Notes under the pieces: model-generated
What the model was told of the DNA's origin: nothing
Databases searched by the model: none
The model's input: only the letters and a program-made list of their open reading frames with translations
IMG/VR virus record: IMGVR_UViG_3300001528_000192
Coordinates: 1 to 64,000 of that record
DNA: 64,000 bases
Source of the DNA: a virus
Lineage: Duplodnaviria; Heunggongvirae; Uroviricota; Caudoviricetes
Direction: 5' to 3' (one strand)
Made by a program: the position numbers and the translations under genes
In this document: piece after piece, positions 42,820-64,000 of the stretch
How positions within the stretch are numbered: position 1 is the stretch's first letter
Layout: each line of letters begins with the position of its first letter

Positions 42820-42821
42820 TA

Positions 42822-43646: not shown

Positions 43647-43814
43647 ATTAGATTTTGTTAAAAGTAACACATACTTTATTTGAGTATTCAAATTTAATAT
43701 TTATATTTGTATAATTGAAATGAATATAACTCATAAGTTAAATAGAAAATTCCACGTATAAATATATTTGTACAAACTCAAGGACTAACAGATTAACTAT
43801 ATAATATCTAACAA
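43647..43814. promoter_or_regulatory. AT-rich divergent intergenic region (probable divergent promoters for the minus-strand lysis cassette and the plus-strand late module)
   Basis: A 168-bp gap of roughly 80% A+T lies between the divergently oriented genes starting at 43646 (minus) and 43815 (plus). Confidence 0.3.
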
Positions 43815-44957: not shown

Positions 44958-45158
44958 AAAAGAAATGCAAGAAAAAGAATAGAATATTAATCATTGTTAA
45001 GGGCATATTGAATCCCAATCTTGGATTAAATGTCAACACTATATACTAAAACAGTCTATTCTTTTTCTTTTTATTTTTAGATTATGAATGTATTTGATAT
45101 TATCAATGGTCATGCAAAAGAAGTCCTTAACCTTAACTAGGACTTAAGTAGTAATAGA

Positions 45159-45350
45159 TTGAAAATCTGCTATAGTTGCCCTCTTTACTCTAGTAAGTTT
45201 GGAGGGATGTGTAATAACAAATTATGGCTGAATGTTAATACAGGAGATGTAAGTAGTATCCAGAAACCTGGGTACAAACGTGGGTGTGGATGTAGATTGC
45301 AAGCCAAGACTAGGCTTCCGAATGCAGTATGCCCGCTGAATAAATGGTAA
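45159..45350 (+). CDS. Small Cys-rich (zinc-ribbon-like) protein
   Basis: The protein reads CYSCPLYSSKFGGMC...CGCRLQAKTRLPNAVCP. Confidence 0.35.
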   Translation: MKICYSCPLYSSKFGGMCNNKLWLNVNTGDVSSIQKPGYKRGCGCRLQAKTRLPNAVCPLNKW

Positions 45351-45370: not shown

Positions 45371-45961
45371 ATGAAAGACGTAAGACTTTACTCAACAGAG
45401 AATGAAAAAATTGCTAGAGAATTACTTGGAACTGATAGTAATTTCACATCGGTAAATATGAGTGAGAACTCAATTGACTCTTTAGTCAAAAAAGAAAAGG
45501 CTCGTAAGTTCAATTCCGAAGTAGAATAGTATAACGAGAAACTAGAACAAAATCATAAAGACTTTAAGGAAAGTCAAGATAAAATAGAATATGACATCAA
45601 TAAGGCAGAAATAAAGCCAATGTTTGCAAGAGTTCTAGTTCAGCCTTTTAAGGTTAATCCTTTCCAGAAAATGAAAGTAGAAAATGGCTTGATAGTTGAT
45701 ACTGGAGGATATACGCCTCATACTCAACTTAATGAACAAACTGGTAGGTATGAAGAGCAAAAGCAATTTATAGTTACTGGATGTGTAATTGAAGTAGGAC
45801 CTGAGGTTAAGTATTTAAAAGAAGGAGATGTTATTTTCTATAGGGTTGACACTGCAGTTCCAGTTCCATTTTTCAAGCAGGGATTCGTAAGTTTAGCAGA
45901 AAGTCAAATTATAGCAGTTGTTAATGAAGGTTTACAAGACCGTTTTGATAATGTTAAGTAA
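45371..45961 (+). CDS. GroES/gp31-like co-chaperonin with an N-terminal extension joined through one in-frame TAG
   Basis: The ATG at 45371 (MKDVRLYSTENEKIAREL...) runs in frame through the TAG at 45527-45529 into the GroES-like segment (VLVQPF...ENGLIVDTGG...GCVIEVGPE...LKEGDVIFYRV...IIAVVNE). Confidence 0.5.
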
Positions 45962-46198
45962 TATGGAAGAAAGTAATATATATTTTAATCCTGGTTAGGT
46001 TGTTCAGTTAAAATAGAATATACCTAATAAGCCAAGGATGATCGTCGTGAAAAAGGAAACATCTTTATTCAAGCATGACTCTAGGAGAGAAGACAAACGT
46101 CCTATCCTTATAGGGATTAGGTGTCGTTGGTTTACTACTACTGGAGCTATGCAAGAAGCAGTGTTTAACACTAAAGACATTGAACTAATTAAAGAATA

Positions 46199-47572
46199 AT
46201 GGCTAATAATTGGAAGTATGGGGATTCCTACTTTGATGGGAACTCTTATAAAACAAGAGCATAGGCGTTTGCTGCTGCTAGGAAAAGTGGTAGAGGAGTA
46301 TTTACTTATAAGGGAAAGCAATATAATACAATGTAGAAAGGGGAAAATGCTGATGACTTTAGAAGGAATCATGCAGACTACGACTATTTCCTTGGAAATG
46401 TTGCTAGTGACTAGGGAGGATGGAAACCTTCTGATCCAGTTCAAACTTCTTATAAAGTAAATAATGTTCCAGAACCTATGAATCCAGACGCCTCACCAAA
46501 ATCTGGACAGTTAGGAGAGGCTGTAGTTACAGCTCAGAAGCAGCCACTACAAATGTTTACAAAAGATGATATTAGATCTCTAGGATTTAATAATTACTAG
46601 GGATTACTTAATGCAGTAAGCAATAGAAATAATTGGAACAATAATTTCGTAAAGGCTCTAAATAATAGATTTGGAACTGATTATGCTAACTGGAAGCAGG
46701 AAGACATAGAAAATGCATTAGGAGTGAAGGGAAAGTATAGATCATTTGGGGGAGGAGACTTTGGAGATATGTCTCGCAGTATGGCAAGCTGGATGGGAAC
46801 ATACAATGGAAATCTCGAAAGGAAAAATCTGCAAGATAGAACTGGATCAGACGGGATAGTCTATTCCAATAAACAAGTAAGAGATCTATTTGAAGCACAT
46901 CCTGTAAAGCCTAAAACATTTACTTTTGACACTAATTCCTTTGGAACTAATCTATTTGGAACGCCAAAGAAATAGTAGGGAGGACAAATTAATATGAATG
47001 AACAACAATTACAATAGGCATTTCTATAGTATCTGATGTAGAAGACTGGAGCTCAAAATGAGCAGCAACTAGAACAAGTTGTTTAGCAGTTGGGTGAAGA
47101 TGGATTGAAACAAGCATACGCTCAATTCATGCAAGAAATGCAGCAATAGCAAGTTCAAGCTGCCAAGTTTGGAGCTAAACTAAATTACATTAAGAAACTT
47201 AATGGACAATGCCCTGAAGGAATGGAAATGCACTATTATAAGCAGGGAGGTAGGCTTTGCAGGAAATGTATGCAGGCTAAACAAAATGGAGGAGAACTAG
47301 AAACACCTTCTAATCCTATTGATGCCTTTAAATGTGGAAGAAAAATTAAAAAGAATCAACAGGGAAGAAAATTTCCTTTGATTGAAACTGACAAGAATGG
47401 AAAGAATAAGAAGGTCTATTATAAGGATGAGGCAACTAGAGATTCTATTGCAGCAAATCGTTACAATGATCAGGAAGTGCAAGTAAATAGACCTGGCTCT
47501 TACAAGAAGAATGCAAAGGGCAAGGTTCAATGGACTCCTGATAGAACCAAGGCACCTTATAAGAGAGACTAA
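46199..47572 (+). CDS. TAG-recoded Gln-rich protein with a C-terminal zinc ribbon
   Basis: ORF-track fragments 46724..46975 and 47222..47572 share the frame of the ATG at 46199. Reading TAG=Q gives ...NEQQLQQAFLQYLMQ...QFMQEMQQQQVQAAKF...CPEGMEMHYYKQGGRLCRKC. Many Gln residues are TAG-encoded, interleaved with CAA/CAG. Confidence 0.5.
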
Positions 47573-47698
47573 TCTTACATAGGAATGAATATGAATTAAT
47601 GAATTATGGTTTAGGATATATTTGTTTACAACAATCAACTCAATAGAGTTGATCTAAATACACATGAAATACTTCTGGTCAAAGAGTTTAAAGCTCTT

Positions 47699-48193
47699 TT
47701 GGAACCAAATAGAAATAAATGCAAAGAAGACCCAAGTGGATTAATGGGTCTTCGTGCATTTAGAGAGTTCACTTATATATGGCTTGCCATATGTTGGAAG
47801 TCTGTGTATAGTGAATATGATGAACAGGTTAGGCACCAAGAGTCCCTAAAGGATGCAAACTTAACAGAAGAGGAATTTAATAATCCAGAATTTAGAGCAG
47901 CATGTAGGAAGTTTAGGCAGATATAGGAGTCTAATCTTTCCATTAAAATGCTACATGCTGCACAGGAAACTGTTAACAAGTTTATAGAATACTTTAATTC
48001 AGTAGATCCTTTAGAGAGAGATGAGTAGACTGGAAAACCAGTATATAAAGTTAAAGATATTATGGCTGAACTAAGTTCTTTAGGAAAGGTTCATGACGAA
48101 CTTGTTGACTTGGAGAGTAGAGTTAAGAAGGAGTTAACTGAACAATCTTCCGTTCGAGGAGGGGCTATAGATGGATATCAACCTAACTTTTAA
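47699..48193 (+). CDS. TAG-recoded hypothetical protein (possible small terminase position)
   Basis: MEPNRNKCKEDPSG... continues through two TAG to TAA at 48191-48193. It lies immediately upstream of the large terminase gene. Confidence 0.4.
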
Positions 48194-50463
48194 TGGTTAT
48201 GGAAGAAGTTAAAAGGAAAAGAGGACGACCTAAAAAGGTTAAACTCCCAGAGGAAATAAAGACTTTGGTACAAGAAGTTAAGCAAGAATAGAAACCAGAC
48301 TTAATTAAAGTAGAGGAATCTGTTCCAGAACCAGAAAAATCTTCAGAGTGGGACGTTCCAAAGGGGGAATATATAAAATTCTTCGATAAAAGGCTTTCTT
48401 ATGAGCTAACAGGCTATAAACCAATTACTGAAACTTAGGGGTTGGATTTTGATCCAAGTTGGTTCACCGTTGCAAGGGATACCTACATAAGAACTGGAAA
48501 GTATTGTAGCTATAGAATATACAGTAAACCTTATAATGATTTCTGGCATGAAGAATACCGTAGATGTCGAGAAGGGTATACTGTAAATGGATATACTTTA
48601 ACTGGTCCAAACTATTATTACCTCAACTACTATCAACTTCCTAATATTGATGTTGAAATAGCAGGTAGTGGACGTAGTTAGATATTTCCTAAGTTCTTGG
48701 TATTTCAGTATGAGTTCTTTCACTACTTTGAGATATGTAGAAGGGAGAAAAAGGATGTATGTTTAATGAAGTCCCGTGGTATTGGATTTAGTGAAATAAA
48801 TGCTGCCATTTGTGCATGCATTTACAATTGCTTCAGAAATAGTAAGTGTATGATTACCACGAGTTTATCTAACTATTTGGAGAAATCTCTTGATAAGGTA
48901 TGGAATGCACTTAGTTTCGCAAATGAACATACTTAGGGAGGACTTGCTAAACTTCGCCAGGCTAAGGACACATAGTTCTTAAAAAGAGCATCTACTTTAG
49001 TAAAGGATTCAAATGGTATAACATCTGAAACTGGATGGATGTCTTAGATTGAAGGAGTAGTAGCTGAGACTGATGCTAAGATAAGAGGCGACCGTATTGA
49101 TTTACTAGTATATGAAGAGGCTGGTTCTAATTCAGTCTTAAGAAAATCATACATTAAGGGAAAAGCCCTTATATATATTGGAGGTACTAAGTTTGGAATT
49201 AGACTTGCGGGAGGTACTGGTGGAGATAAAGGTGCAGCTTTATAGGGACTTAGAGATATATACTATGACCCAAATGGATTTGACGTCCTTCCGTTTTATC
49301 ATAATTATACAGAGGGTGGAGAATGGGTTTATACTGGATACTTTATTCCATCATACATAGGTGCTATTACAGAGTACGGTACTGATATTAACGGAGTAAG
49401 ACGACAATTACTCGATAAAAGAGGCTATTGCTTATGGAAGAATTATAAGGAGTAGCTAGATTTGGATAGGGCTAACCTTTCCTCTAATCCTAGAGCATTA
49501 ATTGATCACTCTGCTGAGTATTGTTACACAGCAGAAGAAGCGTTTGCTTTGGAAGGTGATAACAAATTCAATAAAGTAAATATTGCTGAATAGCTTACAA
49601 ATATACGTGCATTGAAGAAATGTCCCCCTATAGAAAGAGGTTATATTGAATATAAATTCAAGGATGGAGCCCATGTTTAGTAGAATATAGATGGCTTCAA
49701 GTGGATTCCTAATTAGAGTAGTAAACTCTAGATATTAGAACACCCAATATGGACTTTGCCCCCAGTTGAGGACGAGAACGGAAAAGTAACTTGGAGACCT
49801 CCTACTGAAAAAGTTAGAAATTTATATGTAATAGGAATAGATGGTATTGATATAGGCGCAGCCCAAACTTCTGAAGCTACAAAGGATCCATCAGACTTTT
49901 GCCTTGTTGTTTACAAGAGAGCATATGGAATGGAGGAACCAAAATTTGTAGCACTTTATAAGGATAGACCTAATGATGTTAGGGAATGCTATAAGATAGC
50001 TATTAAACTAGCATAGTATTATAATGCTGTTATAAATATAGAGGCAACCAGATAGAGTATAATCCCATATGCGAGAGAGAGAAAGCTTCTTAATCTCTTT
50101 ATGAAGAGACCTAGGGCTACTCTTGCAGACTCTGCTAGGAATACTAATAAACAGTATGGAACTCCAGCAACTCCAGCAATTATAGATCATCAAACAGATT
50201 TAATAGCTGATTATATAAATGACTATTGTCACCTTATATGGTTTGATGAAATGCTTGATGAGTTCAATAGGTATACTGATGAGAATAAGAAGAAATTTGA
50301 TATTGTTGCAGCAACAGCAATGGCTTTGTTAGCAGATGAGGAATTGCAAGGAACAGTACCTAAAGTTGTAGAGGAAGTCAAGGATACCTGGCAAGATATA
50401 GGATTTTACACAGATGAATATGGAAGAAGGCGCTATGGAACACTCCCAAAACACGCTTCTTAG
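48193..50463 (+). CDS. terL: TAG-recoded terminase large subunit
   Basis: Five ORF-track fragments (48442.., 48697.., 49756.., 50101.., all with start%3==1) fuse with the ATG at 48193 when TAG is read through, about 13 TAG in total. Motifs are KSRGIGFSE (a deviant Walker A typical of terminases), DLLVYEEAG (Walker B) and VIGIDGIDIGA...DPSDFCLVVY (the RNase-H-like nuclease domain). Confidence 0.7.
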
Positions 50464-50494
50464 ATACGATTTAATAATAATTTTGGATAGTTAT

Positions 50495-50803
50495 ATGACG
50501 ACTTAGGACCTAGAACAAGTAATACAAGACTATATTCTGGATATTTATCATAAGAAATATATAGGTAGAATGGTCATAGAGAAACTAAATCCAGTAGGAT
50601 ACTGCATTAAGCTAGGGATGGATCATGATCACTAGCCAATAGTTATTTACGCAGAACTAGAGGATGATAAGTTTCTTAAATTCCTCAGGCAAGAACTTAA
50701 GGATAGGCGTTTCAACCTAGTATACTATGGTAAACTATAGTTAACTTACCCATATGATTGTAATCCAATAAATACAGCATGTAGTTGTCATGACAAAGGA
50801 TGA
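50495..50803 (+). CDS. Small TAG-recoded hypothetical protein
   Basis: MTT[Q]DLEQVIQDYILDIYHKKYIGRMVIEKLNPVGYCIKLGMDHDH[Q]PIVIY...CSCHDKG ends with TGA at 50801. Confidence 0.3.
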
Positions 50804-52970
50804 ATTAATAGAGAAAACGGACAAGGCAATATCTGAACTAGTCTACCCTAAATATGATTTATAGAAAGCATATAACTACTATAATGGTGTAAGAGATTCA
50901 GACTAGTTCAGATACCTAGAGGAAGTGTATGGAGCAAATGCTCCAACTACATTACATTTCACCCCTTTAATAAAGAAACATATTGATGCCCTTATAGGAG
51001 AGTACTTAGGAACTCCTATAATTCCAAAAATATTTTGTAAGGACAGTGAAACAATAACCAATATAGATAGAGAGAAGCAATTAAAGATCGCTTCTGAACT
51101 CCATGAGTATTTGAAGAATCATCTTAGAAATTCTGTTCTCAACTTTATAGATGGAAAGAATATCAATGATGGTCTTATTGAGTAGCAACTGAAGAGAATA
51201 GTGGAAGATATAAATAATACATTTGTATCAGAATATGAGATTGCTGCATAGAACGTAATAGAATATATTATGCAATCTAGAGATACTGATATCATTACAG
51301 TATTAAGAGATCTTCTTCTAGATCTTTTAATTACTGGATATGCCTTTTATAGAGTTCTACCTACAGTAGAAAATAATAGCATTAGAATCTAGGCTCTAAG
51401 CCCATTAAATACTTTCATTGATAGAAACTTTGAATCTCCATATATTAAAAACTCTTATAGAGTTGTTGTAAGAAGCTGGATGACTAAAAACCAAATCCTA
51501 AATGAATATGGTAAAGAAATGAAAGCATCTGATAGAAAACTTTTAGATGAAAAGTGGGATTCTGTTTACGAAAATGCTATGTACTACGTCAGAATGGGGG
51601 AAACCAATGGTATTCCAAATACAGACGGTGTTCAAGCTGGAGTAGAAGTTACTCCTGGCTATCCTGATAGTAAGTCCGGACTAACTCATGAACTTATCCC
51701 CGTTTACGAAGTAGAATGGTTAGAAACTGACAAAGATTTCATAATGCAGAGATATAGAACAGTTAGAATTGGAGAACAAATCTATATACTTAGGGGGAAG
51801 GATGAAAAAGTTATGAGAACTAAATCTAATCCTTCTTACTGCAGTCTCTCTGTTAATGGTATATATTTTTTGAATAGAGGAACGAAACCTTATTCAATGG
51901 TTCTAGCCTGTGCTCACCTCCAAGATTAGTATGATCTTCTGAACTTTTATAGAGACAACCTTATTGCTAATAGTGGTACAGTAGGGGACTGGATTGATTT
52001 AACATTAATTCCTGCTGAGCTAGGTGTAAATCTTCCAGAACGACTTATAAAGTGGTAGGCTCTGAAGAAACAAGGGCTAGGAGTTCTTGATTCCTCTTAG
52101 GAGGGACGATTGGCTTCTGGGCAAGCTCCATTAAATACTATTTTTAATGGTTTTGATAATACTGTTAAAATGTAGGCTGTTCAAGCTATATAGGTAGCAA
52201 TAGATGCTATAGAGCAAACTACCTCCTCTATTACTGGAGTCTTTAGAGAAAGGCTTAATGGTATTGAGTAGAGAGATGCTGTGACTAATGTTAAAATTGG
52301 ATAGAACAACTCATTTATTATAACTAAATAGTATTATCACTAGATGGACTTAATAGTAAATGAGATGCTATTAGACTGTTTAAATCTTGCCAAAGTTGTA
52401 TTCAAGAATGGATTAACTGGAACTATTATACTAGGAGATAAGTATCAAAGAGTATTTACTGCTCTTCCTGAATATTTTACAATAACTGATCATGATATTA
52501 GGATTGTTACTAGTACTGATATTGTGAAGGATTTGGAACAAATAAAGAATATTATTCCTGAATTTGTTAAATCTGGCGGTCTCCCTCCCGACATTATTAT
52601 TGAAGCCATAACTAGCAAGAGCTTACCAGATCTTAAGTACAAGGTAAGAAAAGCTATGCAAATCTAGAAGGATGAAAATAATTAGATGTAGCAACTAAAT
52701 TAGCAAAATTAGTAGCTCTAGTAGTAGCTCTAGGAAATGTAGAAACAGTTACAGGAGGCTCAGAAGAAAGTAGAATCTCTTAATCAAACTAAACTACAGC
52801 TTGAACAAAAGCAGCTTGAATAGAATTATAAGATTGAAATGTATAAGGCTAATACAGATAGGTCTTATAAGGAGGCTACTGTTGAGGAGTAGAAAAGAAG
52901 AACTTAGGTTGAAATAGCGCAGTTAACAGATGGGAATCCTTACAATGATAAAATTAGACAAATTGATTAA
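50790..52970 (+). CDS. TAG-recoded large virion protein, portal-like by position, with a TAG-dense Gln-rich C-terminal tail
   Basis: Fragments 50925.., 51480.. and 52344.. (all %3==0) join from the ATG at 50790 to TAA at 52968-52970, about 726 aa. The assignment as portal rests only on its position after terL and its size. Confidence 0.4.
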
Positions 52971-53686
52971 TGGAACTGAAAATTAAAATAATTACTTGTA
53001 ACGCCTGTGATAATTGTAAGGTTACTGTGCAAGACAATAGCACTTATTTATCAGAGGATAACATAGGAACTGTTAAGGGAAAATTTAAATTCTCCGATAC
53101 AGTGTCTATAGATATACTTTAGCTAAACAAGTCTTAGGAATCTGTATACTTGAACCCTACATTTACTGATCATTCTTCGTTGAATAATTCTACCTTATAG
53201 GTATCTTCTGATGGATGGTATAGTCTAGTTCATATTGTACTTCCCTCTAAGGAATGGTTTAATAGAGAATTAGAAAAACAAGACGGTTCTGCTCTAGGAT
53301 TGTATAATATAGTATACTTTGCAAGCGATAATAAAGTATATAAATATATAAATGGCAGTACATCAGAAGTTGATTTATCTGAAGTACTAGAAGTAAATCC
53401 TGTAAATACAACAATTTCGAAAACATCAGAAGACTTTGTATCTATTTGTTTTTTACGAAAATGTTATATAAATTTGTGCAAGCAAATTCTAAACGATAGA
53501 GGATTCTCCTCTTGTTGGAATAAAAATAAGATAGATAGTGAATTAATATATAAAAGAGATCTAGTCTGGATGGCAATTAATGTCATAAAATATCTCACAG
53601 AGTGTGAACAGCTTGCGGAAGTTGAGAGACTAGTTGAGATAATTAATGGATGTAATGGCTTATGCTCTTCGTCTAGCTCTTCTTAG
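52970..53686 (+). CDS. TAG-recoded hypothetical protein
   Basis: MELKIKIITCNACDNCKV... runs through three TAG into ORF-track 53300..53686. Confidence 0.4.
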
Positions 53687-53890
53687 AATAGTAGTGGATG
53701 TGGATGCTCTAAATAATTTAAAGAAAAAGGTATCTGAGGAATTTTTCTAGCTCATGTGTAAAGTTAGAAAAGGATACAAACCAGACTATGAATTTATATT
53801 AGAAGAGATTTCTTTTATAGACCTAATAAAGAATAGGGAAATAGATGATAAATTATCTTTAACTGCATTATAGTACTATTTAAATAACAA

Positions 53891-55690
53891 ATGGCAGATA
53901 ATTCAATCTTAACTCCAGGATGCTAGGATACCATAGACACTCCTACAACTGTTGATGAATCTGTTCAATATTTAGAGAAGGATAACTTCCTATCTGAGTA
54001 TGAAAATGAATCAGAGAAATCAGTAGTAAGGGAAAATCTAAATGTGTATCCAAAGAATGCAGTATATACCAAGGATGAAACTGATGCCAACATTGCTACA
54101 ACAGTAACAACTGCTGTCAATAAGCATCTTAGTGTTGAGGATCCTCATGGAACCTTGGATACTGTAAGAGAGATGATTGCAGACATGGCTAAAACAGATG
54201 GAAGTACTCCATTTACATCTCCTCAAGTTGGAGTTGAGCCTGTTTCTGATAGTCATCTAACAACAAAGAAATTTGTAACTAGATTATTAAATGAGCATAC
54301 TAGATTAGTTGGGTCTGATGATCCACATAAAATATTGCCAGAGGTAGAAACTATTTTAGAAAAATATGTTAAGTCCTCTGATGTGTTTACTAAGTCCTAG
54401 CTTTATACAAAGCAAGACGTAGATAATTTGTTAAAAGCTTTCTTAAAGAAAGACGGAAGTACTCCATTTACTATCGCTCAGATAGGAGTTGACCCAACTA
54501 TAGATAGTCATCTAGCCACCAAGCGGTATGTAGACAAGACTCTCTACGCCCACTTGGTAGATGTTGACCCTCATGGTTTCTTAACTATATTAAATCAAAG
54601 ATTAGCTTCTTATGCCAAGATAGCTAATGTATATGATAAGACTCAAACATATTCTAGAAGTCAAATTGACGCATTTATCAACAAATGGGTTCAAGAAGCC
54701 GTAGCAGAAGCTATTGCAGAATATATGGAGACAGTTGATGATAGATTTGAGTCTATACGTCAAGACAGATATGTTAAGCAAGATGGATCAGTTCCATTTA
54801 GAAACCCTCAAGCGGGTGTTGATGCTATTGAGCCAGAACATCTAGTAACTTTAAAGTAGGTGGAAGATAGGACTTCTGAAATAAAGGAGGACTTAGAATC
54901 TAAAATATAGGACAAGGAATGTTTATGGATTACATCTGGTCCAGTAGAATCCACAGTCGGGCATGTTGAAGATAATACTCCTATGCCTGCTACTATGACA
55001 TTACAGGAAGTATGTGATGCTATATTCTATGGCAAAGGTATTTGCATGGAGGTACCAGACTATGTAGTTATAACTAAGAAATGTCCTGTTACTCTATGTA
55101 TTCATGGATCAACTGGTTTGGTATAGGTTGCTCAACTCTTCCAAAATGGAAAGTTAATTTATACCTTTACTGGTGATGATTTCAAGGATGGATGTATAAC
55201 TGTAGACAGCGAACCTCTTCTAGAGGATGCCGAATTTGTATTCAGAGTAACTTATACAAATGGTTCTGTCCACGAGGAAACTGCTACAGTAAAGTGCTAT
55301 ATGCCTGTATTTGTTGGATTACTCCCTAAGTGGAAAACAGGAAGTACAATTACTATGGATTATTTAATCCAGTTATGTGAGGAGGATACAGAAGGAACAT
55401 AGAATCGATTCATAAACTATGGAGGAGACTTGAAATCCTTTACATTTAAGTATGTATTCTCAGATGCTTCCCTTCGTCATCCATTCATTGTACTCCCAGA
55501 GGCATATCCAAATCTAGACACCATGGTAACTAAGTCATAGAGTTTTGGAATTGATGCTTTCGATGTAATTAACAATATTCCTCTATCCGTACCAGGAGTG
55601 GAAAAAGATATTATATTTAAAGTATATATTTATAGGTAGGCTTTAGCTACCCTTAACTAGGAAGTAACATTTAATTTTGAAAGTAAATGA
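53891..55690 (+). CDS. TAG-recoded structural protein with three tandem ~45-aa repeats
   Basis: The ATG at 53891 joins fragments 54044..54400 and 54428..54859 (%3==2) and ends with TGA at 55688-55690. The repeats read DGSTPFTSPQVGVEPVSDSHLTTKKFV, then DGSTPFTIAQIGVDPTIDSHLATKRYV, then DGSVPFRNPQAGVDAIEPEHLVT. Confidence 0.45.
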
Positions 55691-58600
55691 GCCAGTTTAG
55701 TGAAATGATGGGTAGCTTTATAAGGACTGGTAATTATCCTATGGAGGCTAATTACATATTCCCTACAGAAGCTGCTCTAAAAGAATTTTACAATGATCCT
55801 ATTAATGCTACAACTCTTCATAAAGGTCTGCTAAAAGTAGTGGAAAATGGTGGAGATGGAAAGCAAGCATTATATTGGGTTGTTAAAAAGCAGACAAATG
55901 ATGACTTAGAGTTTGTCAAGCTTATAGAAAATATAGATATAGATACTATTGATGGACAATTAGAAAGCCTTTAGAAGGAACTTGAGGAAGAAATCAAGAA
56001 TAGAAAAGATGGAGAAACTGCCATCTGGGGAACCAATGATCCTACTAATGTACCTGAGGAACTGAACAGTTTATTGGACTTAGCTACCGCTGTAACTAAT
56101 CTTATAAAGGAAGTTCAAGATATTCATAAAGAATTGATTGACTCAGATGAATCAATTCATAAATCTCTAAAGACAGAAATAAAGGCAACTGTTGGAACAC
56201 AGGAGGATGACATTGTTTCTTACCTAAAGACTCTTCCTTATAAATCTCTTACTGAAGCGGCTAATGCTCTCAACAAGTTCCTTAATACCACTGATGCTGA
56301 CTCTAATTAGATAAATACTCTTCCAGAACTTTAGTTCTTCTTAGAAGGGTATACTGATACTCAGAAGCTGCGTCATGTGCTATTGGACTTACAGGCAGAG
56401 ATACTGGGAAATCCTCTTCCTACATAGGAATTTAGAACTCTTCGTGCTATAGAAGACTTTGTAAGAATCTTAAAGGCTGATTCTGAAACATCTGACAAGA
56501 ACATACAATCTGAATTAGACAACACTCAAATTGGTGTTGGACTTAGTGGAGATGGCTCCTATAATGCTGACAAGGAGACTTACTACCTAAAAGATGCAAC
56601 ATCCATAATGAATGCCCTTAAGGTGTTAGATTCCTTGATGTATGAAGCTCTTAAAGGTATTACTATAAAGGCTAGTAATGAGGATGTAGTTGACTTAAAT
56701 GTTAGGAAGGAATTAGAGGGATATGTGATAGGTGCTAAATTGAACCTGTCTAATGTACTTGGAAATGACCTTATAAAGAAGGAAGATGGACTTTACTTCA
56801 ATGTAAAATCTACATATAATAATGGAACTCTTTCTTTATATGTAAACGATAAGTTAGTAGCTCAGCATATTCTTGGATTCTCATCTATTGTTGAGTCTGC
56901 TTTCTACGATTCGTCTAATGAATCAATTGTTATAGTCTTTAAGCTACTTAGTGGAGAAAAACAAACTATTACAATTCCAGTTGGTACTCTTATAAGAGAG
57001 TTGGAAGTGGATAATTCTCAACCTGATAAAGTTGTTGAGCTAGTTAGAGAAACAGTAATTGATGGAGCTGATAAGTTATCTGCTGACGTTCGCATACATT
57101 CTGATAAGCATAATATTCTTAAAAAGGTTGGAAATACTTTATCAGTAGATGGAACTACTGATAGTATTACTCATAATGATAAGACTTTAAGTTCTGTTAT
57201 TGAAGAGATAAAGACTACAGAATCAGAATCTACTTCAACTCTTACTCAGAAAATTAACTCAGAAGTAGATAGGGCTAAGGCAGAAGAAGAGTCTATAAAA
57301 GCCTCTTTAGAAGAAGTAAAGGATAATACAGACAAAGCAATTTCAGATCTAAAATTAAAAGATTCTGAAATGCAAGCGGCAGTATTAGCTGAGACTAATA
57401 GGGCTACAGAGGCAGAGAATAATTTAAAGACTTCAGTTCAAGATCTAAAGGACTCTGATTCAGCTATTAAAGAATCAATTGAAGAAATCAAGATCTCTGT
57501 TTAGAACAATGCTAGGGAGATTACTTCTACTAAGAATCTAATAGGACTTGAGGCAGAAAGAGCTCAAAGTGCAGAGGAAACTCTAACTCAAAGAGCTAGC
57601 GCTATAGAAGCTGAGTTAAGTAATATTAGTAAACAGTAGGTAGATACTGGTAAGGAAGTTGTTTCCCTAACTAATAAGTTGGATGCTGAAATTACTAGAT
57701 CTACTAATAAAGACTCTGAACTCTCTGATGCAATATCTAAAGAAACTGCTAGAGCAACTGAGCAAGAGAAAATATTATCCACGGCTTTAGATACAAAAGT
57801 TGGAGCTGTAACTATAAAGAAAAGTGAAGTAAGCGACCTTTAGTATGTTCTTTACGTTGACGGGAAGGCAGCTGGGGAGATAAATATTCCTGACGATCAA
57901 TTCCTGCAGGATGTAAAATATGACACTACAAGCAAGAGCTTAGTGTTCACCTTTATAACCAAAGAAGGCACTAAGGTGGTATCCGTTAGTCTTTCTGACT
58001 TAATTGATACATATACTGCTGGAGATGGTTTACAACTAGAAGATAACAAGTTCTCTGTAAGGAAATGCCTAGGAAGTCAGAAATATCTTGAGATTTCTGC
58101 TGACGGACTTAGCATCGTTGGAATTGACGAGGCATTAGCATTAAAATCAAACGTCGGAGATTCTTATACAAAGTCAGAAAGTGATGCAAAGTATTTAACT
58201 GAACACTAGGATATTAGTTCTCTTGCAACCAAGGACGAAGTAAAGGTAGTTTCTGATGAAATAATGAAAGTCAATTCTAACCTTTAGAAGGAGATAGAGA
58301 GAGCTACAACTGCAGAAACTGATTTACTTCAGAAAATTGGAACTAAAGTTGAATCGGTAGTTCTTACTAAAGTTACTGACCTTAAGTATGACATAACCGT
58401 AAACGGAGTTAGCATAGGTCAGATTGACATTCCTAAGGACTAGTTCTTGAAATCAGTTACATTAGAGGGGAAATCTACTTTAAGGTTTGTTTTCGAAACA
58501 ACTACTGGTACTGTTGCCACAGATATAAATCTAGAAGATGTGGTAGCCGATGCTTTAGCAGAATTAGAGGCTAAGGTCAACAAGAAAGCAGATATTGATT

Positions 58601-58842
58601 CTCCGGTATTCACTGGAGTTCCTCAAGTAGCTGTATCTCCAGATGCTTCTGACTCCTCTCAAAGGATTCCATCTACTAATTGGGTTAGAGATAGGATTCA
58701 AGAGGAAGTTTCTAAGATAGATGTAACAGCATATATTACTAGAGCAGATGTGGAGAAAATGGTGGCAAAGAAAGCAGATTTAGTAGACGGCAAGGTTCCT
58801 TTGTCCCAACTCCCAGTAAATAATTGGATAGACGTAGAATGA
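55687..58842 (+). CDS. TAG-recoded large tail-fiber-like protein (about 1050 aa, coiled-coil rich)
   Basis: Fragments 55687.., 56074.., 56608.., 57943.. and 58447.. all lie in frame 1 and fuse via TAG. It has long heptad-like acidic coiled-coil stretches and a VSLSDLIDTYTAGDGLQLEDNKFSV module. Confidence 0.5.
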
Positions 58843-60632
58843 ACAACGATATTAAAAGACCTCAAGGAATGAGCCAGTTGGATTACCTCTGGCTCAACTT
58901 TGGAGGTAGGCGTATAGAGAATGAAGCGTCTACAACTCCACAAGAAGACGTATTACTTACAGAAAAGGCTCTAACTGAGCTAATATAGAAATCAACTAAG
59001 GGAGGCATAACTAGCCTACTGTTTGATGATGATCCACTAGATAGTACTATGACTCGTTTGGCTGGTCAGACTTTAGATGGCTCAATCATTACAGTAGTTA
59101 AGATGCCTAAAGAAGTACATGTGGTATCATTTGTTGGAAGAAAGGCTACCCAGGTTGATGTAGATAATGGATTTAAATTCCCAGTAGGTTCTAAGGTACT
59201 AGCAATTACTTTAAGTAATGGAGAAGAATTATTAGTTAGCTTAGATGAATTAAATCTAGTAATATCTGGAGGAGAAACTGATACTATTATCAATGAAGTT
59301 GGAGCAACCGGAGTTGTAAGTTCCAACCTTAAATTGGATAAAGGAAATAATACACTATCCGTAGTTAAGCTTAAAACGTCTAATACTGGATTATATGCGA
59401 CCTTGGATCTTTCTTAGAAAGAATCTGGAGTAGTACTCTCTAAAGAATCAGACGGTTTGCTAGCACAAATCCCTCTTGGAACCACAGGATACAATATTAA
59501 GTTTCAGAACCTGACTTTATCAGAATATTTAAATATTCCTATTAAGGACTCTGGAACACTCTACTTCATTTCTGATGTGCCTTACATATTCTTAGGGTCT
59601 AGAAGGTATGGAGTAAATATGGAACCAGGAGAGGCTCCTATAGTATCTCTAGTTTATGATCCAGATACGATGACTCTCGCATATAAGAGATCTGATGAGA
59701 GTGACATAAGACTCATAAGTCTTGGTCCTGCAAGTGATATTGCAAATGGAATGATGTCTAAAGAGTAGTACATCGAATTAAGGACTCTTAAGACTGCATT
59801 AGACGGAATAGTAAATGTGAAGGACTATGTAGGGTCTCAGGTTAGTAAAGCTGCCATTAAGCTAGAATGGGGAGAGACAGTAGGAACCACTAGGAAACTC
59901 CTTTTAAAGAATGCACTAAATGACATTCTATCAACAGTTGATGTTGATACAGAAAATTATTTAAGCTTTGCTATCAGTAAGGTTGCTGAGGCTGATGATG
60001 TATAGGCTGCTGCTGCACAGGGAGTTGTTATAACAGAAGGGCAACAAATATTAATACTTACTCTAACTTCAGGAGATAAAGTCTATGTAAGTCTTTAGGA
60101 CTTAGTAGATGTTTACACTGGAAAGAACACTAAGTCAATTAATGTATCCATTTCTAAGTCCAATGAAATTAGTGCAGACCTGAACCTTAGTTCTGAGGAC
60201 AAGATGCTCTATGTTTACAAAGATGGGCTCGGATCTAATCTCCAAGTAGTAAGAAAGCCTGGAAAAGTAATAATCTATGGTAAGACATAGACTGAGGAAG
60301 ACAAACTTGGAGAATTTATAGTTGGAGATCCTCTAACACAAAGCATTTTTGTTAAGAGCTTTACAGCTGATACTTATAAGAGTTACCCTCCTAGGAGAGT
60401 TGATGGAAAGGAATATGATCAGTTAACTAATCCTCTAGTTGTTGGAGAACCTTATTTGATTATGAGCTTCAGTCTGGACACTGGAGATCCTTCTACTAGT
60501 TTTGTATATAATGACTATCTGTCATTGCAACCAATGATTAATAGCTTTACATTATCCCCAGAGAAGGGAAATATGTTAGAGAGAGATGAAAACGGATATT
60601 TATATTGTTCACTAAAATGGATTGACGTATAA
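58839..60632 (+). CDS. TAG-recoded tail fiber/spike-associated protein
   Basis: Fragments 59049.., 59457.. and 59817.. (frame 0) fuse from the ATG at 58839 to TAA at 60630-60632. It contains an ...[Q]DLVDVYTGKNTKSI module related to the SDLIDTY repeats. Confidence 0.45.
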
Positions 60633-61906
60633 TGGAATACCTATCTATACCTCATTATAGAGGTCTTAAAGAAAAATATGATGAGCAGAAGCACAGTGAT
60701 GGAATATTCTTCACCACTGATACTCATGAAATTATAGCTAATAAAGCTACCTACGGTGAAACTATTGACACCTGGAACATAGCTGACGGAGTATTGACTC
60801 TTACAATGACCTCTGGTACAACCTTGGAAATTACTTTTGACGAGGCAACAGAGGATGCAAAGGGATTTCTGTCAGCAGAGGATAAAAAGAAGATTAATGC
60901 TTTAGAGGAGAGCTTTGATAAAAAAGTAGATAAAGTTACTGGAAAATCTCTAGTTGATGATACAGAAATTGATAAGTTATCTAAACTTCCAAGTAAGACT
61001 GATTTAGACTCTTCTATAGCTGATGCGAAGAAGGCTGGAACAGATGCTCAAACTAATCTAACTACTCACATTGATGACAAAGATAACCCTCACAAAGTAA
61101 CTAAGACTCAAATAGGATTAGGAAATGTAACGGATGATGCTTAGGTTAAGAGATCTGAAATGGGAGTTGCAGAAGGAGTTGCAACACTAGACGAAAATGG
61201 ATTAGTTCCTTCTAGTCAACTTCCTTCTTTCGTAGATGATGTACTTGAATTTGATTCAAAGGACAACTTCCCTGTTGCTGGAGAAACCGGAAAAATCTAT
61301 GTATCAACTGATACTAATCTTACATATAGGTGGTCAGGAACCCAGTACGTAGAAATAAGTGCGTCCTTAGCCTTAGGAGAGACATCTTCTACTGCTTACG
61401 CAGGTGACAAAGGAAAAGATGTAGCTGATAAGTTAGCTAAGGTTAGAAACACTCAACTATCCCACATCAAGGATACTGATACATTCTCTACTACTGCTGA
61501 AAAGGTTAGTCTCAACTACGATTGCTATGTAGGTGATCAGTACGGTGTAGAGGCTACATCCCACTCTGTGGATATTCCTGTTGCAAGCAAAACTCAGGCA
61601 GGTATTATTACTGCTGAGGATAAGAAGACTATTGATAACCTCGATGACACCTATATCAGTAAAACTAAAGATAGTACTGATGTGCAAATAGCTGATGGTT
61701 CTACTCTTCCTATAGATAAGTTTGTAGGAGATCTCACTTATGATTCAACAACTGGAGAATTATTTGTAGGCTATCCAACTACTAAAGGAGAAACAATCAA
61801 AACTCAAGTAATAGCTTTACCAGAAGCTACAGAAGATACCGCAGGACTCTTATCTGCTGATGACAAGAGTAAGCTTAATACATTAAATTGGGAAACTATA
61901 GATTGA
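60632..61906 (+). CDS. TAG-recoded tail fiber protein
   Basis: Fragments 60632..61144 and 61160..61906 are joined by one TAG. It carries the repeated motif EATEDAKGFLSAEDKKKINAL / EATEDTAGLLSADDKSKLNTL. Confidence 0.5.
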
Positions 61907-61907
61907 T

Positions 61908-62630
61908 ATGGAATTTATAAAGAGTATTAATTATCAGGGAACAGGGCGTCCTATAGCTGCTGATTATGATGGAGCAGGTAATTTGATTAAGGATACTTAC
62001 GCTAAGCAGAAGGATGTAGATAAGTCAGTAGAAGATTTATCCAATGCCATAACTGCTGGAGGTGCTAATGCTGCTATAAGTCTTACTGAGACTTCATCTG
62101 CAACTTATGCTAAAGCTTATGTTATAAAATAGGGAAATAAAGAGGTTGGAACTATCAACATTCCAAAGGATATGGTCGTTAGTTCAGGTTCTCTTAAAAC
62201 TGTTACATCGGCAGATAATCCTTACACTGGAGCCAAGGTAGGAGATAAATACATTGACTTAGTTATCGCTAATGCTACTAGTGAGCACATTTACATTCCT
62301 GTATCGGATCTCATTGATACTTACTTAGCAGGGAACGGACTAACTCTAGAAGGTTCTACCTTCTCTATTAAGAAAGACACAACTAGTGAAAGTTATTTGA
62401 CTGTTGGCGCTGATGGAGTAAAGGTATCTGGAGTAGATAAGGCTTTAGAAGGTAAGGTTGACAAAGAGGATGGTAAGTCCTTGGTACTTACAACAGAAAT
62501 TACTAAATTAGCACAGCTAAATCTGCCAGACACAGAATTAAAAGAAAGTGAAAATACAGTTCAAAATAAGGCTGTTAAAGCAGCAATTGACGAGATAAAT
62601 ACTAAACTCACATGGACAATATTGGATTAA
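61908..62630 (+). CDS. TAG-recoded tail fiber protein
   Basis: Fragments 61908..62132 and 62172..62630 are joined by one TAG. It contains VSDLIDTYLAGNGLTLEGSTFSIKKD, the same module as in 57943... Confidence 0.5.
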
Positions 62631-64000
62631 TGAGTGAAACAGTAAATTTTATACAAGGCTCAAAGAAGAATTATGACTCCTCCACAATGCAAGGAGGAGT
62701 CTATTTCTCCAAAGACAGCAAGGAGATTCTTCTAAATGGAGAAAGTTATGGTAATGCAGTTCCTGCCGATGAGGAGGACTTAACTTCGGTTAATGGAGCA
62801 TTACAATTGAGAGATAGAGAAGTTAATGCTGACAACTTCTAGTCTAAAGGTTATGTAATTTTGAGGAAGAATATAGTAGATGGTAAAAATGTCCTTACTC
62901 AGGATATGATTAACCAGCCTAATACTATCTATGAGATTAGATATGATTTTGATTTGAACGGCGAAGAGATTACTATTCCAGAAGGATGTACACTAAAATT
63001 TGAGGGAGGTAAGATAAGAGATGGAGGGGTTACCTTTAACAAAACCTCTATATAGTCTTAGCCACTGTATATATTTGAAAACATAGAATGTAGCGGACAA
63101 ATATTAAATTTTATTCCAGTAGAGTTTTTCGGGACATTTCCAAATGATGCTACTAGTGTGGATTTAGCAACTTCGCTAACAAAAATCTATGGTGTAAGCA
63201 GTACTGCAAAATTAGGAATGGGTAGATATTATGCTAAAGAATGTTCCATTGAAATCAAAAATCTAATTGGTGCTGGTAAAAGTGCTACTATCGTGGAGTT
63301 TTCAAATATAAAAAATGATAGCACTGGATTTAGATTCGGAAAAACTACTGGAGGTTCTGGAAACAGAACTTGGAATAACTATATAGCTGACCTTCAAATA
63401 GAGATTACCAATAATGGGGCGCTTCAATCCTCTGCAATGGAGATTAATAACGTCACTAGAGCTACTATAGAAAGGGTGACATTAATTAACTACAATTATA
63501 GAAACAAAGAATATAGTGAGGAAGAATTAAAATCTCCAGAGTTATACAGCAACTATGCTTTAGTAATGAATGGTTCTTCCGAGCTTGTAGACATTTCTAA
63601 TTACACCTTTATAGCTGACATACCATTATTTACGAAGAAAAGTTGTGATCTTCTTTCATTTAGGAAGGGTTATATGGAATGCTCCTCTTATGGTTTTTCT
63701 GGCATATATGGAGTTCCATTAGGAACAAACTCAGAGATAAGTGGGGGTCTCGATATCTCTTAGGGGTTGCATGGGATGCATTTTACTCCTATTTCTCCAG
63801 ACTCTTTTAGAACAAAGTATTCTAATATCAGAATAGAGCAGTTGAGAAAAGGAGGTGCAAATATCTATGTAAATGCAGAAAACTCTGTGTTAAGTTTTAG
63901 CATGAAAGAGTTATCGTTAAGTGATAATACAAAAGGGTTCAAAATTGATGGAAACAGTTCCTGCAAGATATATCTAAGCAACATTATTTGCTTTAACAGT
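62612..64000 (+). CDS. TAG-recoded tailspike-like protein with beta-helix-type repeats, 3' end outside the window
   Basis: Fragments 62612.., 62861.. and 63158.. (frame 2) fuse via TAG. It has repetitive N-x-T/V-x-V-type beta-helix-like segments (ITNNGALQSSAMEINNVTRATIERVTLINYN). Confidence 0.45.

Follow-up and report, generated by a model that had tools for sequence, protein, structure and literature searches.

The 64,000-nucleotide stretch of viral DNA analysed here (the window) is written in a mixed genetic code. In its packaging and structural genes TAG is a sense codon, while TAA and TGA still act as terminators, and comparison with homologues indicates that TAG stands for glutamine. Very probably, the genome is partly in code 15 (TAG = Gln; only TAA and TGA stop), supplies its own tRNA(CUA) and would thereby delay its late genes. 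Judging from similarity and size, its source is most likely a large crAss-like gut phage of the Zeta group. TAG-to-glutamine recoding of late genes is already well documented in crAss-like phages, and the same arrangement has been described (Yutin 2021, PMC7886860; Borges 2021/2022, 10.1101/2021.08.26.457843; Mgcod, 10.1101/2022.06.29.495998; 2025 Zeta-group paper, PMC12386605).

In-frame TAG codons in the packaging and structural module

Between positions 45371 and 64000 we counted 100 in-frame TAG codons across 14 plus-strand genes, without any in-frame TAA or TGA. When TAG is read as sense, an unbroken plus-strand gene array runs from 45030 to the window end. The genes of this strand are as follows.

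44088..44990, plus strand: PD-(D/E)XK-type exonuclease (phrog_298, E 9e-25)
45030..45350, plus strand: small gene, 106 aa, 2 TAG; clear recoding on the plus strand starts here
45371..45961, plus strand: GroES-like protein, 196 aa, 1 TAG (phrog_3188, E 3.8e-5)
45924..46199, plus strand: small gene, 91 aa, 2 TAG; homologous gene called in the relatives L001-L003
46199..47572, plus strand: 457-aa protein, 11 TAG; family and PDB searches gave no match
47606..48193, plus strand: 195-aa protein, 3 TAG, directly 5′ of TerL (phrog_16390, E 1.9e-9)
48193..50553, plus strand: large terminase subunit TerL, 786 aa, 17 TAG, stop TAA (phrog_6681, E 4e-72)
50495..50803, plus strand: small gene, 102 aa, 3 TAG, overlapping the TerL 3′ end and reaching the portal start; counterparts of 88-105 aa called in L001-L003
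50790..52970, plus strand: portal protein, 726 aa, 28 TAG (phrog_6547, E 1e-45)
52970..53716, plus strand: Cys-rich protein, 248 aa, 4 TAG
53891..55690, plus strand: structural-module protein, 599 aa, 9 TAG; family and PDB searches gave no match
55687..58842, plus strand: coiled-coil, fibre-like protein, 1051 aa, 10 TAG, stop TGA
58839..60632, plus strand: fibre-module protein, 597 aa, 6 TAG
60632..61906, plus strand: tail-fibre-like protein, 424 aa, 1 TAG; many tail and tail-fibre PHROG matches
61908..62630, plus strand: fibre-module protein, 240 aa, 1 TAG
62612..64000, plus strand: protein cut by the window end, more than 461 aa, 4 TAG

The sole TAG of the exonuclease lies 11 codons ahead of its TAA, so that the protein ends at 44957 when unsuppressed and at 44990 when suppressed. 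From its position, the product of 47606..48193 would fit a small terminase subunit. Many of the portal TAGs fall in a Gln-rich C-terminal coiled region.

The initial annotation had described in-frame TAG throughout this module, and the counts agree with it. Its figure of tens per gene, however, applies only to the four of the 14 genes that have at least 10, the range being 1 to 28. For TerL, the proposed end at 50463 falls on an in-frame TAG (50461-50463); the gene continues to the TAA at 50553 and holds 17 TAG instead of about 13. The portal-like gene, thought to have at least 20, has 28, and the fibre-like gene does read as one 1052-codon frame (1051 codons plus stop). Every fragment can be joined to the next without leaving the frame, and frameshifts need not be invoked. 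The TerL profile match runs in one frame through the TAGs over residues 59-722. In the portal, likewise in a single frame, the profile spans residues 25-319 and the solved portal gp20 of crAss001 (PDB 7qog, E 1.6e-12) residues 317-677. The same-frame fragments thus chain into full genes that match known families. TAA and TGA are the only terminators in every complete gene. None of the outcomes that would have spoken against recoding (TAA/TGA read-through, unjoinable fragments or frameshifts) was observed.

The coding density of the module, computed from ORFs of at least 100 aa, was 0.56 in the standard code; taking TAG as sense brought it to 0.97, compared to 0.61 for TGA and 0.64 for TAA. This gain was specific to TAG in all three recoded regions of the window. 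Off-frame, TAA and TGA together occur about 7.7 times per 100 codon positions, so that a 786-codon frame lacking both does not arise by chance. Window-wide, the 21 recoded genes comprise 8301 codons with 174 in-frame TAG; in-frame TAA and TGA are absent, and of the stops 14 are TAA and 6 are TGA.

The same pattern was found in relatives. We surveyed TerL in 14 relatives from viral collections with at least 54% amino acid identity (L047-L059 and L063). Eleven of these genes are uninterrupted and hold 9-21 in-frame TAG but neither TAA nor TGA. The other three carry an insertion of about 1.1 kb and also have TAGs, their TAA/TGA tallies including the insert. TerL relatives at about 40% identity have 7-8 in-frame TGA instead. 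At the window's TAG positions, relatives with 84-89% nucleotide identity carry TAG 108 times, CAG 15 times, CAA 13 times, another sense codon 17 times and TAA or TGA never. A decayed module, in which the interrupted frames are pseudogenes, frameshift genes or the result of sequencing or assembly errors, would agree with the fragmented code 11 reading and its low coding density. It is already contradicted by the data, since TAG is the sole interrupter, homology is full-length and in a single frame, TAG positions are kept in relatives and change to sense codons only, and all uninterrupted TerL genes repeat the TAG-only pattern. We therefore consider decay virtually impossible. Gene counts, single-frame homology and codon exchanges with relatives all support the recoding of TAG that had been proposed.

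Glutamine at TAG positions and the suppressor tRNA

Pooled over the approximately 22 recoded genes, TAG makes up about 41% of glutamine positions. Of 2667 TerL homologues, 120 were used to determine the residues at TAG columns. The 17 TAG columns of TerL contain 50% Gln, compared to a background of 4.3%, and one of them is an invariant Gln column in these 120 homologues. In TerL columns with TAG in the window, L001, L002 or L003, CAA or CAG accounts for 30 of the 88 codons other than TAG. In close relatives, 62-73% of the changed codons facing TAG are CAA or CAG, and none is TGG. These exchanges indicate that TAG is glutamine, which has been proven for code 15 in crAss-like phages by proteomics (Peters 2022, PMC9523058).

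A tRNA able to read this codon is present in the window.

39763..39835, minus strand: suppressor tRNA, anticodon CUA, reading UAG (ARAGORN; Rfam tRNA, 55 bits)

ARAGORN labels a CUA tRNA 'Pyl' by default. In L004, L005 and L002 the gene is conserved, and its acceptor and T stems show compensatory and wobble-to-Watson-Crick changes. Its D arm is nearly identical to that of the phage tRNA-Gln(UUG), and both tRNAs have U1 and A73. The anticodon arm, on the other hand, is closer to that of the phage tRNA-Trp, so that the tRNA body alone is no proof of glutamine identity. In E. coli, tRNA-Trp derivatives that act as amber suppressors are charged with glutamine, U35 being a major determinant for GlnRS.

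It is very improbable that TAG encodes another amino acid, such as Trp, Glu or Lys. The suppressor shares 71% identity with tRNA-Trp(CCA) and 64% with tRNA-Gln(UUG), which would favour Trp, and after CAA and CAG, TAG is most often exchanged with Glu and Lys codons. However, the absence of TGG among the exchanged codons, the invariant Gln column and the charging of the E. coli derivatives all argue for glutamine, as do the proteomic data from other crAss-like phages, and Glu and Lys are residues that commonly substitute for Gln.

Recoded and standard-code genes on the minus strand

Recoding extends beyond the module to two clusters on the minus strand.

40395..43646, minus strand: recoded lysis cassette, outside the range initially flagged
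42822..43646, minus strand: 274-aa protein, 10 TAG, first gene of the cluster
41707..42819, minus strand: cell-wall hydrolase with NlpC/P60 domain and lysozyme-like C-terminal part, 370 aa, 17 TAG (PF00877, E 6e-20)
41487..41705, minus strand: small holin-like protein, 72 aa, two hydrophobic segments; 2 TAG, both within segment 2
41269..41490, minus strand: second small membrane protein of the cassette, 73 aa, 0 TAG, one Gln codon only
40395..41276, minus strand: 293-aa protein, 16 TAG
6386..7423, 5467..6381 and 4194..5594, minus strand: recoded three-gene island, 10 TAG each

The PHROG matches of the hydrolase are tail-lysin and endolysin families, and its orthologues in L002 and L003 bear NLPC_P60 and Phage_lysozyme2. 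TAG makes up 71% of the Gln-type codons in the first gene of the cassette and 73% in 40395..41276, the strongest preference in the window (p = 0.004 compared to the pooled 41%). The island belongs to a family found in this lineage only; its middle gene has a weak peptidoglycan-binding match. It is flanked by same-strand standard-code genes, and reading TAG as sense takes its coding density from 0.40 to 0.94. In the relative L064 the same island is recoded (5-17 TAG per gene), and neighbouring genes have 0 or 1 TAG.

Between the two clusters lies a block of a different kind.

7729..40334, minus strand: standard-code block; confident genes without internal TAG

It encodes an SPFH/Band 7 protein, a cluster of amidoligase, GATase and COOH-NH2 ligase genes, an AAA ATPase, a TROVE-like RNA-binding protein, a glucosaminidase, nucleases and a tmRNA, and holds 21 of the 23 tRNA genes of the window, including the suppressor. 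The conserved phage tmRNA lies at 20514..20976. The glucosaminidase-type cell-wall hydrolase (21016..21537) is in standard code without TAG, so not all lysis-type enzymes are recoded.

In-frame TAG had been reported as absent from the standard-code genes between 7.7 and 40 kb. Counted per gene, the 39 standard-code genes indeed have no internal TAG, compared to 174 in the recoded genes, but the HNH-like ORF 9272..9916 within the block probably has at least one. The counts support the view that the 7.7-40 kb genes can be read with the standard code, and the genes of the window are thus partitioned by code.

Could code 15 instead apply uniformly, the lack of TAG in these genes being due to chance or compositional bias? 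Standard-code genes translate identically under either code, and Mgcod terms such blocks 'dual-coded' (10.1101/2022.06.29.495998). However, the 39 genes (8052 codons) contain 243 CAA/CAG codons; at the 41% share of the late genes, the chance of finding no TAG is about 0.59^243, roughly 1e-56. Composition does not bar TAG either, since off-frame it is common in these genes (2.05 per 100 codon positions). In addition, several of them end naturally at a TAG with TAA or TGA only 1-12 codons further on, and the sharp, conserved island boundaries in L064 argue for selection. A uniform code is thus extremely improbable.

Proposed mechanism and related systems

In the mechanism that we propose, the approximately 22 recoded genes (the plus-strand packaging and virion module, the lysis cassette and the island 4194..7423) would be decoded by the phage tRNA(CUA), presumably charged by the host glutaminyl-tRNA synthetase. 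The auxiliary, tRNA-rich block avoids internal TAG and is thereby readable by the unmodified translation system of the host. As proposed in the literature, the standard-code genes and the suppressor would be expressed first. Only once the suppressor outcompetes release factor 1 at UAG would full-length terminase, portal, virion and lysis proteins be made, which would delay and coordinate late functions and block premature lysis.

The term late is assigned here from gene function. Recoding had been thought to be confined to genes with late functions; the packaging and structural genes agree with this and the lysis cassette fits, but the recoded set is wider than the module and includes the island. 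Counting against the late label, the three island genes and several other recoded genes have no assignable function, and the tail-fibre genes (60632..62630) carry only one TAG each.

Recoding might also serve mainly to guard against expression in the wrong context, which we consider possible but rather unlikely. It could shield toxic lysis and virion genes from early expression forced by the host, bar gene exchange with or exploitation by co-infecting standard-code phages, or be a by-product of a suppressor tRNA retained to derange host translation. Consistent with such roles, recoded islands are embedded in same-strand standard-code arrays, the most exchange-prone fibre genes are the poorest in TAG, synteny with the close relative L003 stops near 55.8 kb, and a CUA suppressor is retained by some Zeta-group phages that are not recoded (PMC12386605). 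On the other hand, packaging, virion and lysis functions dominate the recoded set, and the lysis cluster holds both genes with a significantly raised TAG share, as in other crAss-like phages (10.1101/2021.08.26.457843). These purposes are moreover compatible with timing and not mutually exclusive, and delayed late expression is the reading that we prefer.

In previously described TAG-recoded crAss-like phages (PMC7886860, 10.1101/2021.08.26.457843, PMC9523058), as here, TAG is Gln in TerL, portal, structural and lysis genes, TAA and TGA are kept as stops, other genes use the standard code, the phage carries a tRNA-Sup(CUA), and lysis-cluster genes show the strongest TAG preference. The genomes of Borges et al. 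are about 105 kb with a single contiguous recoded unit, whereas here the contigs of relatives are 162-182 kb and recoding is spread over at least three separate blocks that involve both strands.

The Zeta group ('Echekviridae' proposal, PMC12386605; PMC7886860) is similar in the size class of the relatives (155-189 kb), GC content (about 35-37%), 17-34 tRNA genes with a CUA suppressor among them, and mobile endonucleases and introns. Its amber, opal and unrecoded lineages are phylogenetically close, and we likewise found both TAG-type and TGA-type TerL relatives. This comparison covers genes other than the signature genes (MCP, IHF, RNAP), which lie outside the window.

The Mgcod genomes similarly have one unambiguous code 15 block and another that reads the same under both codes, and most have a Sup-CTA tRNA, usually at the 5′ end of the recoded-gene strand. 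Here, in contrast, the minus strand carries the suppressor, which closely follows the recoded lysis cassette and heads the standard-code block, and the main recoded module occupies the other strand.

Lak megaphages and Jade and Agate phages (10.1101/2021.08.26.457843), which are unrelated lineages, also centre recoding on structural and lysis genes in several modules. Some of them have, in addition, release factor 2 or 1 and a tRNA synthetase, but a search for release factor and aminoacyl-tRNA synthetase genes in this window yielded none. In Jade and Agate phages TGA is recoded to Trp, unlike the TAG-to-Gln recoding here.

In-frame TAG codons in the packaging and structural module

Under the standard code (code 11), the plus strand of the window (36% G+C) beyond ~45 kb breaks up into short ORFs, most of which end at TAG. 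When only TAA and TGA were allowed as stops, these fragments joined into a compact gene array. A per-gene count in 45371..64000 gave 14 genes that together contain 100 TAG codons in frame. TAA and TGA do not occur in frame in any of them, and all complete genes in this range end with one of these two codons. The coding density of the range, computed from ORFs of at least 100 aa, was 0.97 with TAG as a sense codon and 0.56 with the standard code; with TGA or TAA as the sense codon instead, it reached 0.61 and 0.64, respectively. Since the gain was large with TAG and small with TGA or TAA, the effect is specific to TAG. Among all 21 recoded genes of the window (8301 codons) we found no in-frame TAA or TGA, and their stops were 14 TAA and 6 TGA, in agreement with these two codons being the sole terminators of the recoded genes. 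In the off frames of the module genes TAA and TGA together occur ~7.7 times per 100 codon positions, so that frames of 600–1050 codons free of both are not due to chance. Three genes illustrate the effect of the recoding:

48193..50553, plus strand: TerL, 17 in-frame TAG codons, full-length only with TAG as sense
50790..52970, plus strand: portal, 28 in-frame TAG codons, full-length only with TAG as sense
55687..58842, plus strand: gene of 1051 codons with 10 TAG

Homology runs across the TAG codons of both TerL and the portal. The TerL profile phrog_6681 aligned to residues 59–722 in a single frame (E = 4e-72) and the portal profile phrog_6547 to residues 25–319, while the portal gp20 of crAss001 (7qog, a solved structure) aligned to residues 317–677 of the window portal (E = 1.6e-12), again in a single frame. 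The initial annotation had proposed that the module is written with in-frame TAG and that same-frame fragments split by TAG chain into full genes; both proposals hold, and no frameshift is needed. The base following an in-frame TAG did not differ noticeably from that following CAA or CAG.

Several details had to be adjusted. TerL had been placed at 48193..50463 with about 13 TAG codons; the frame is indeed rich in TAG, but 50463 is itself an in-frame TAG, the gene extends to 50553 and the count is 17. The 28 TAG codons of the portal agree with the earlier figure of at least 20, and 55687..58842 reads as one frame as described, with 1051 codons plus the stop where 1052 codons had been given. 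The description of tens of TAG codons per gene fits only part of the module: numbers range from 1 to 28, and just 4 of the 14 genes reach 10 or more, so that it was overstated for the rest. The recoding of TAG is real and had been correctly interpreted, but it is already known.

Glutamine as the meaning of TAG and the suppressor tRNA

In an alignment of TerL with 120 homologs, the 17 TAG columns contain 50% Gln, compared to a background of 4.3%, and one of these columns is an invariant Gln. Because database translations might already assume Gln at TAG, we also compared the DNA of relatives, which are related contigs or loci of the viral collection designated by L-numbers. In the TerL columns with TAG in the window or in L001, L002 or L003, CAA or CAG accounts for 30 of the 88 non-TAG codons. 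When the TAG codons of the window were compared with L003–L005 (84–89% nucleotide identity), they were matched by TAG (108), CAG (15), CAA (13) or another sense codon (17), and never by TAA or TGA. In the reverse comparison, TAG codons of the relatives stand opposite CAA (27), CAG (9) or other codons (13) in the window. A reading of TAG as a stop, or of the module as a set of decaying genes, is contradicted by these exchanges, which involve sense codons only. Judged by the exchange pattern, TAG behaves as a glutamine codon under purifying selection. In other crAss-like phages, Gln at TAG has been confirmed by metaproteomics (Peters et al. 2022, PMC9523058).

The phage carries a cognate tRNA, which was found by both ARAGORN and Rfam:

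39763..39835, minus strand: suppressor tRNA with anticodon CUA

The suppressor is conserved in L004 and L005 and, more distantly, in L002. Across the relatives an acceptor-stem U·G is replaced by C-G, and a T-stem C-G by U-A in a compensatory change. In the D arm, U1 and A73 it agrees with the phage tRNA-Gln(UUG), and its anticodon arm resembles the phage tRNA-Trp. CUA-anticodon derivatives of both tRNA-Gln and tRNA-Trp types are glutaminylated in E. coli. For the proposed Gln identity of TAG, we regard the evolutionary evidence (homolog columns and codon exchange) as a stronger argument than the tRNA body. Among the window proteins scanned, no release factor or aminoacyl-tRNA synthetase genes were found. 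In phages with code 15 (TAG read as Gln) a CUA suppressor is common but not universal; the window phage has one, which differs from those described in lying on the strand opposite to the main recoded module.

Recoded blocks and TAG-free genes

The initial annotation had described the recoding for 45371..64000, as confined to genes that by function should be late. This module is indeed recoded, but two further blocks outside it are recoded as well:

40395..43646, minus strand: lysis cassette
4194..7423, minus strand: island of three genes with 10 TAG each

With TAG as sense, the coding density of the lysis cassette rises from 0.14 to 0.88. Reading TAA as sense also gives 0.71 in 40395..43700, but by merging short ORFs (longest 215 aa versus 374). 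The cassette encodes an NlpC/P60 and lysozyme-like hydrolase of 370 aa with 17 TAG codons, whose domains are also present in orthologs, two small proteins that each have two hydrophobic segments, and two further unannotated proteins. Only two genes have a significantly raised TAG share, both in the lysis-cassette cluster: the Gln-type codons are 71% TAG in 42822..43646 and 73% TAG in 40395..41276 (p = 0.004 versus the pooled share for the latter gene). A preferential recoding of lysis cassettes was reported by Borges et al. (10.1101/2021.08.26.457843), and the same is seen in the window.

The island has standard-code neighbours on the same strand. Its coding density increases from 0.40 to 0.94 with TAG as sense, and TGA or TAA as sense brings no comparable gain (4194..7489). 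In a large protein database all homologs of the island family are unnamed and restricted to this phage lineage. For the proteins of the island and other unannotated late proteins, Pfam and PHROGs returned only a weak peptidoglycan-binding match, tblastn against phage records gave no match, and there was no sequence match in the PDB. Searches of the viral collection with back-translated peptide patterns or a degenerate DNA motif detected no island relatives. The same island is present in L064 (~70% identity) with 5–17 TAG per gene, and of its neighbours there 15 of 16 have no TAG and one has a single TAG. Both the island and its sharply drawn limits are therefore conserved. At the other end of the window, each of the distal fibre genes (60632..62630) has a single TAG; these genes lie beyond ~55.8 kb, the point at which synteny with the closest relative is lost.

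The standard-code genes, mostly on the minus strand, occupy 7.7–40.3 kb and 1–4.2 kb. These 39 genes (8052 codons) have 243 CAA or CAG codons and no internal TAG. In the 21 recoded genes, TAG accounts for 174 of the 422 Gln-type codons (41%), and at this share the probability of finding no TAG among 243 Gln-type codons is ~1e-56. Off-frame TAG is common in the standard-code genes, so that composition is not the reason for its absence in frame. Several of these genes have a TAG at or near the natural end, followed by TAA or TGA 1–12 codons further on, and would therefore gain only a short tail under suppression; the PD-(D/E)XK nuclease at 44088..44990 shows this most clearly. Within a delimited set of genes, TAG thus serves as a codon for Gln; all others avoid it, and a conserved cognate tRNA is carried.

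The proteins of the standard-code block include SPFH/Band 7, an AAA ATPase, nucleases, RNase H, NAMPT and a response-regulator-type DNA-binding protein, together with the following:

9272-9916, minus strand: HNH-like ORF with an N-terminal helix-turn-helix
13179-17146, minus strand: amidoligase (PF12224), class-II glutamine amidotransferase, phiEco32-like COOH-NH2 ligase (PF14395, phrog_3815, E = 1e-67) and peptidase C26/GATase
21016-21537, minus strand: glucosaminidase-domain cell-wall hydrolase (PF01832, E = 5e-16), standard code, no TAG
24069-25811, minus strand: TROVE/DUF2828 and vWA-like protein (phrog_850 'RNA-binding protein', E = 5e-33), adjoining tRNA genes
38480-39415, plus strand: HNH/endonuclease VII-type gene, oriented against the surrounding minus-strand block

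The absence of in-frame TAG at 7.7–40 kb had been claimed without exception. This stands for the standard-code genes, but the HNH-like ORF apparently needs at least one TAG to be read through (...IGIQLP-TAG-RRKP...) and is the sole likely exception to the TAG-free rule in this range. A recoded intron endonuclease in Borges et al. (10.1101/2021.08.26.457843) offers a parallel. The locus of the second HNH gene measures ~1.1 kb in the window versus ~87 bp in L004 and L005, so that this gene is an inserted, free-standing homing endonuclease.

The amidoligase/ligase cluster, which is a known phage peptide- or metabolite-modification cassette, is entirely in standard code and has no evident link to the recoding. 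The TROVE protein resembles Ro60-type RNA-binding proteins, and no Y RNA partner for it was detected by Rfam. The two cell-wall hydrolases differ in code: the glucosaminidase has no TAG, and the NlpC/P60 protein of the lysis cassette has 17.

Lineage, probable late expression and the phage tmRNA

Of the phage records that have an annotation or a name, Crassvirales gave the best matches to TerL (24–29% identity over 68–87% of the protein), and two unannotated human-gut 'Bacteriophage sp.' records reached 44–47%. TerL, through these matches, and the portal, through crAss001 gp20, are thus related to those of crAss-like phages. In the viral collection, 14 relatives have at least 54% TerL identity. 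Eleven uninterrupted copies contain 9–21 in-frame TAG and no TAA or TGA, and in L055, L057 and L059 the TAG-containing gene carries an insertion of ~1.1 kb with TAA and TGA stops, in which Rfam detected no intron family. At ~40% TerL identity, L060–L062 have 7–8 in-frame TGA and no TAG: within the wider lineage, recoding has switched from amber to opal.

Several features would fit the Zeta group (PMC7886860, PMC12386605): the size class, large tRNA arrays, a suppressor tRNA with anticodon CUA, the presence of introns and of homing endonucleases, a structural block that encodes a PD-(D/E)XK nuclease, and both amber and opal types among neighbouring lineages. Zeta genomes of ~145–192 kb compare with contigs of 162–182 kb in the relatives, the window covering 64 kb. 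Of the many tRNAs, introns and homing endonucleases of the group, the window has 23 tRNAs, a tmRNA and HNH genes, one of them an insertion, and a relative has a tmRNA with a group I intron. The nuclease at 44088..44990 matches phrog_298 (E = 9e-25), and its orthologs contain PDDEXK_1. The crAss-type MCP, IHF and giant RNAP block were not found in the 64-kb window and are presumably located elsewhere in the genome. The phage is crAss-like and likely belongs to the Zeta group.

Their functions (packaging, virion, lysis) suggest that the recoded genes are late genes, with expression following that of the suppressor. Following the published model for this class, the standard-code genes would be translated first by the host machinery. 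The suppressor tRNA would be transcribed and charged by host GlnRS, and full-length terminase, portal, virion and lysis proteins would appear only once it competes effectively with RF1. This would delay and coordinate late functions and protect against premature lysis. As rival purposes, recoding might contain toxic genes, hinder standard-code phages from exchanging genes with the phage or exploiting it, or be a by-effect of a suppressor kept to disturb translation in the host. A promoter and terminator scan at the strand-divergence point and the suppressor gave about as many matches as shuffled sequence and yielded no operon structure, the sigma-70 consensus being unsuited to transcription in Bacteroidota or crAss-like phages.

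The early/late logic of delayed late functions, with a bias to lysis genes, was described by Borges et al. (10.1101/2021.08.26.457843). Zeta branches alternate between TAG, TGA and standard code (Yutin et al., PMC7886860), Mgcod found a Sup-CTA tRNA in 225 of 303 phage genomes of the mixed-block type (10.1101/2022.06.29.495998), and amber-suppressing Zeta members have 155–189 kb and 17–27 tRNAs (2025, PMC12386605). The window phage differs from published code-15 phages only in details, including at least three recoded blocks on both strands. The pattern has already been published repeatedly for crAss-like phages between 2014 and 2022 and does not change current understanding. The phenomenon as such shows that the genetic code can serve as a regulatory layer, since the virus gives a stop codon a new meaning in the course of infection. 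Recoding also defeats standard gene callers and leads to faulty virome annotation; code 11 would annotate the module as dozens of fragments. For the window, the practical value lies in translating with code 15, correcting gene ends (TerL at 50553) and including the lysis cassette and the island.

The standard-code block also contains a tmRNA that was missed by ARAGORN:

20514..20976, minus strand: tmRNA (Rfam RF00023, 65 bits, E = 4e-23)

Its acceptor stem has the G3·U70 alanine determinant, and the tag frame GCU...GCC encodes ARVINMTPAYQAAA, followed by TAA TAA. Compared to 331-nt copies in relatives, it has an insertion of ~130 nt in the pseudoknot region. Its position downstream of the glucosaminidase gene is kept in L038, L039, L040, L045 and L046. 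In L042 (3369-3620 of the locus; IMGVR_UViG_3300045988_110911), the T arm is interrupted by a group I intron (RF00028, 87 bits), and the tag differs C-terminally (ARVINMTPATAVAIAA). A scan with the tmRNA 3′ end hit 32 unrelated contigs because this segment is widely shared, and was of no help in following the tmRNA of the phage.

Huge phages are known to encode tmRNAs (PMC7162821), and in recoded E. coli ribosomes at unassigned UAG are rescued by tmRNA (PMC6207430); no paper was found that connects tmRNAs with recoded phages of the crAss-like type. A link between tmRNA and amber suppression, e.g. through ribosome rescue on read-through messages, is speculative. We consider it rather unlikely that translation alone gates late expression, whatever the transcription units, with the tmRNA as one of the tools that, once suppression sets in, cope with ribosomes running through UAG or stalling there in host and early messages. 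That reading draws on the conserved tmRNA and on islands inside same-strand standard-code arrays, a layout kept at ~70% identity in L064. If it were true, the code switch would involve more than the suppressor tRNA.

Of the 23 tRNA genes in the window, 21 lie in the standard-code block, including the suppressor. Two of the tRNAs deserve a comment:

23932-24004, minus strand: tRNA-Thr(UGU)
28420-28505, minus strand: tRNA-Lys(UUU)

The tRNA-Thr is an additional copy absent from the first ARAGORN pass, for which Rfam (63 bits) and a relaxed ARAGORN run agree. For the tRNA-Lys, the version aligned by Rfam is 86 nt long, and its 5′ part resembles a partially duplicated acceptor/D region. The intergenic DNA of the tRNA region also holds one further RNA match:

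27571-27608, minus strand: abiF RNA motif (RF03085, 50 bits versus a gathering score of 37)

In bacteria this motif accompanies abortive-infection abiF genes, and one possibility is that in the phage it acts as an anti-defence decoy.
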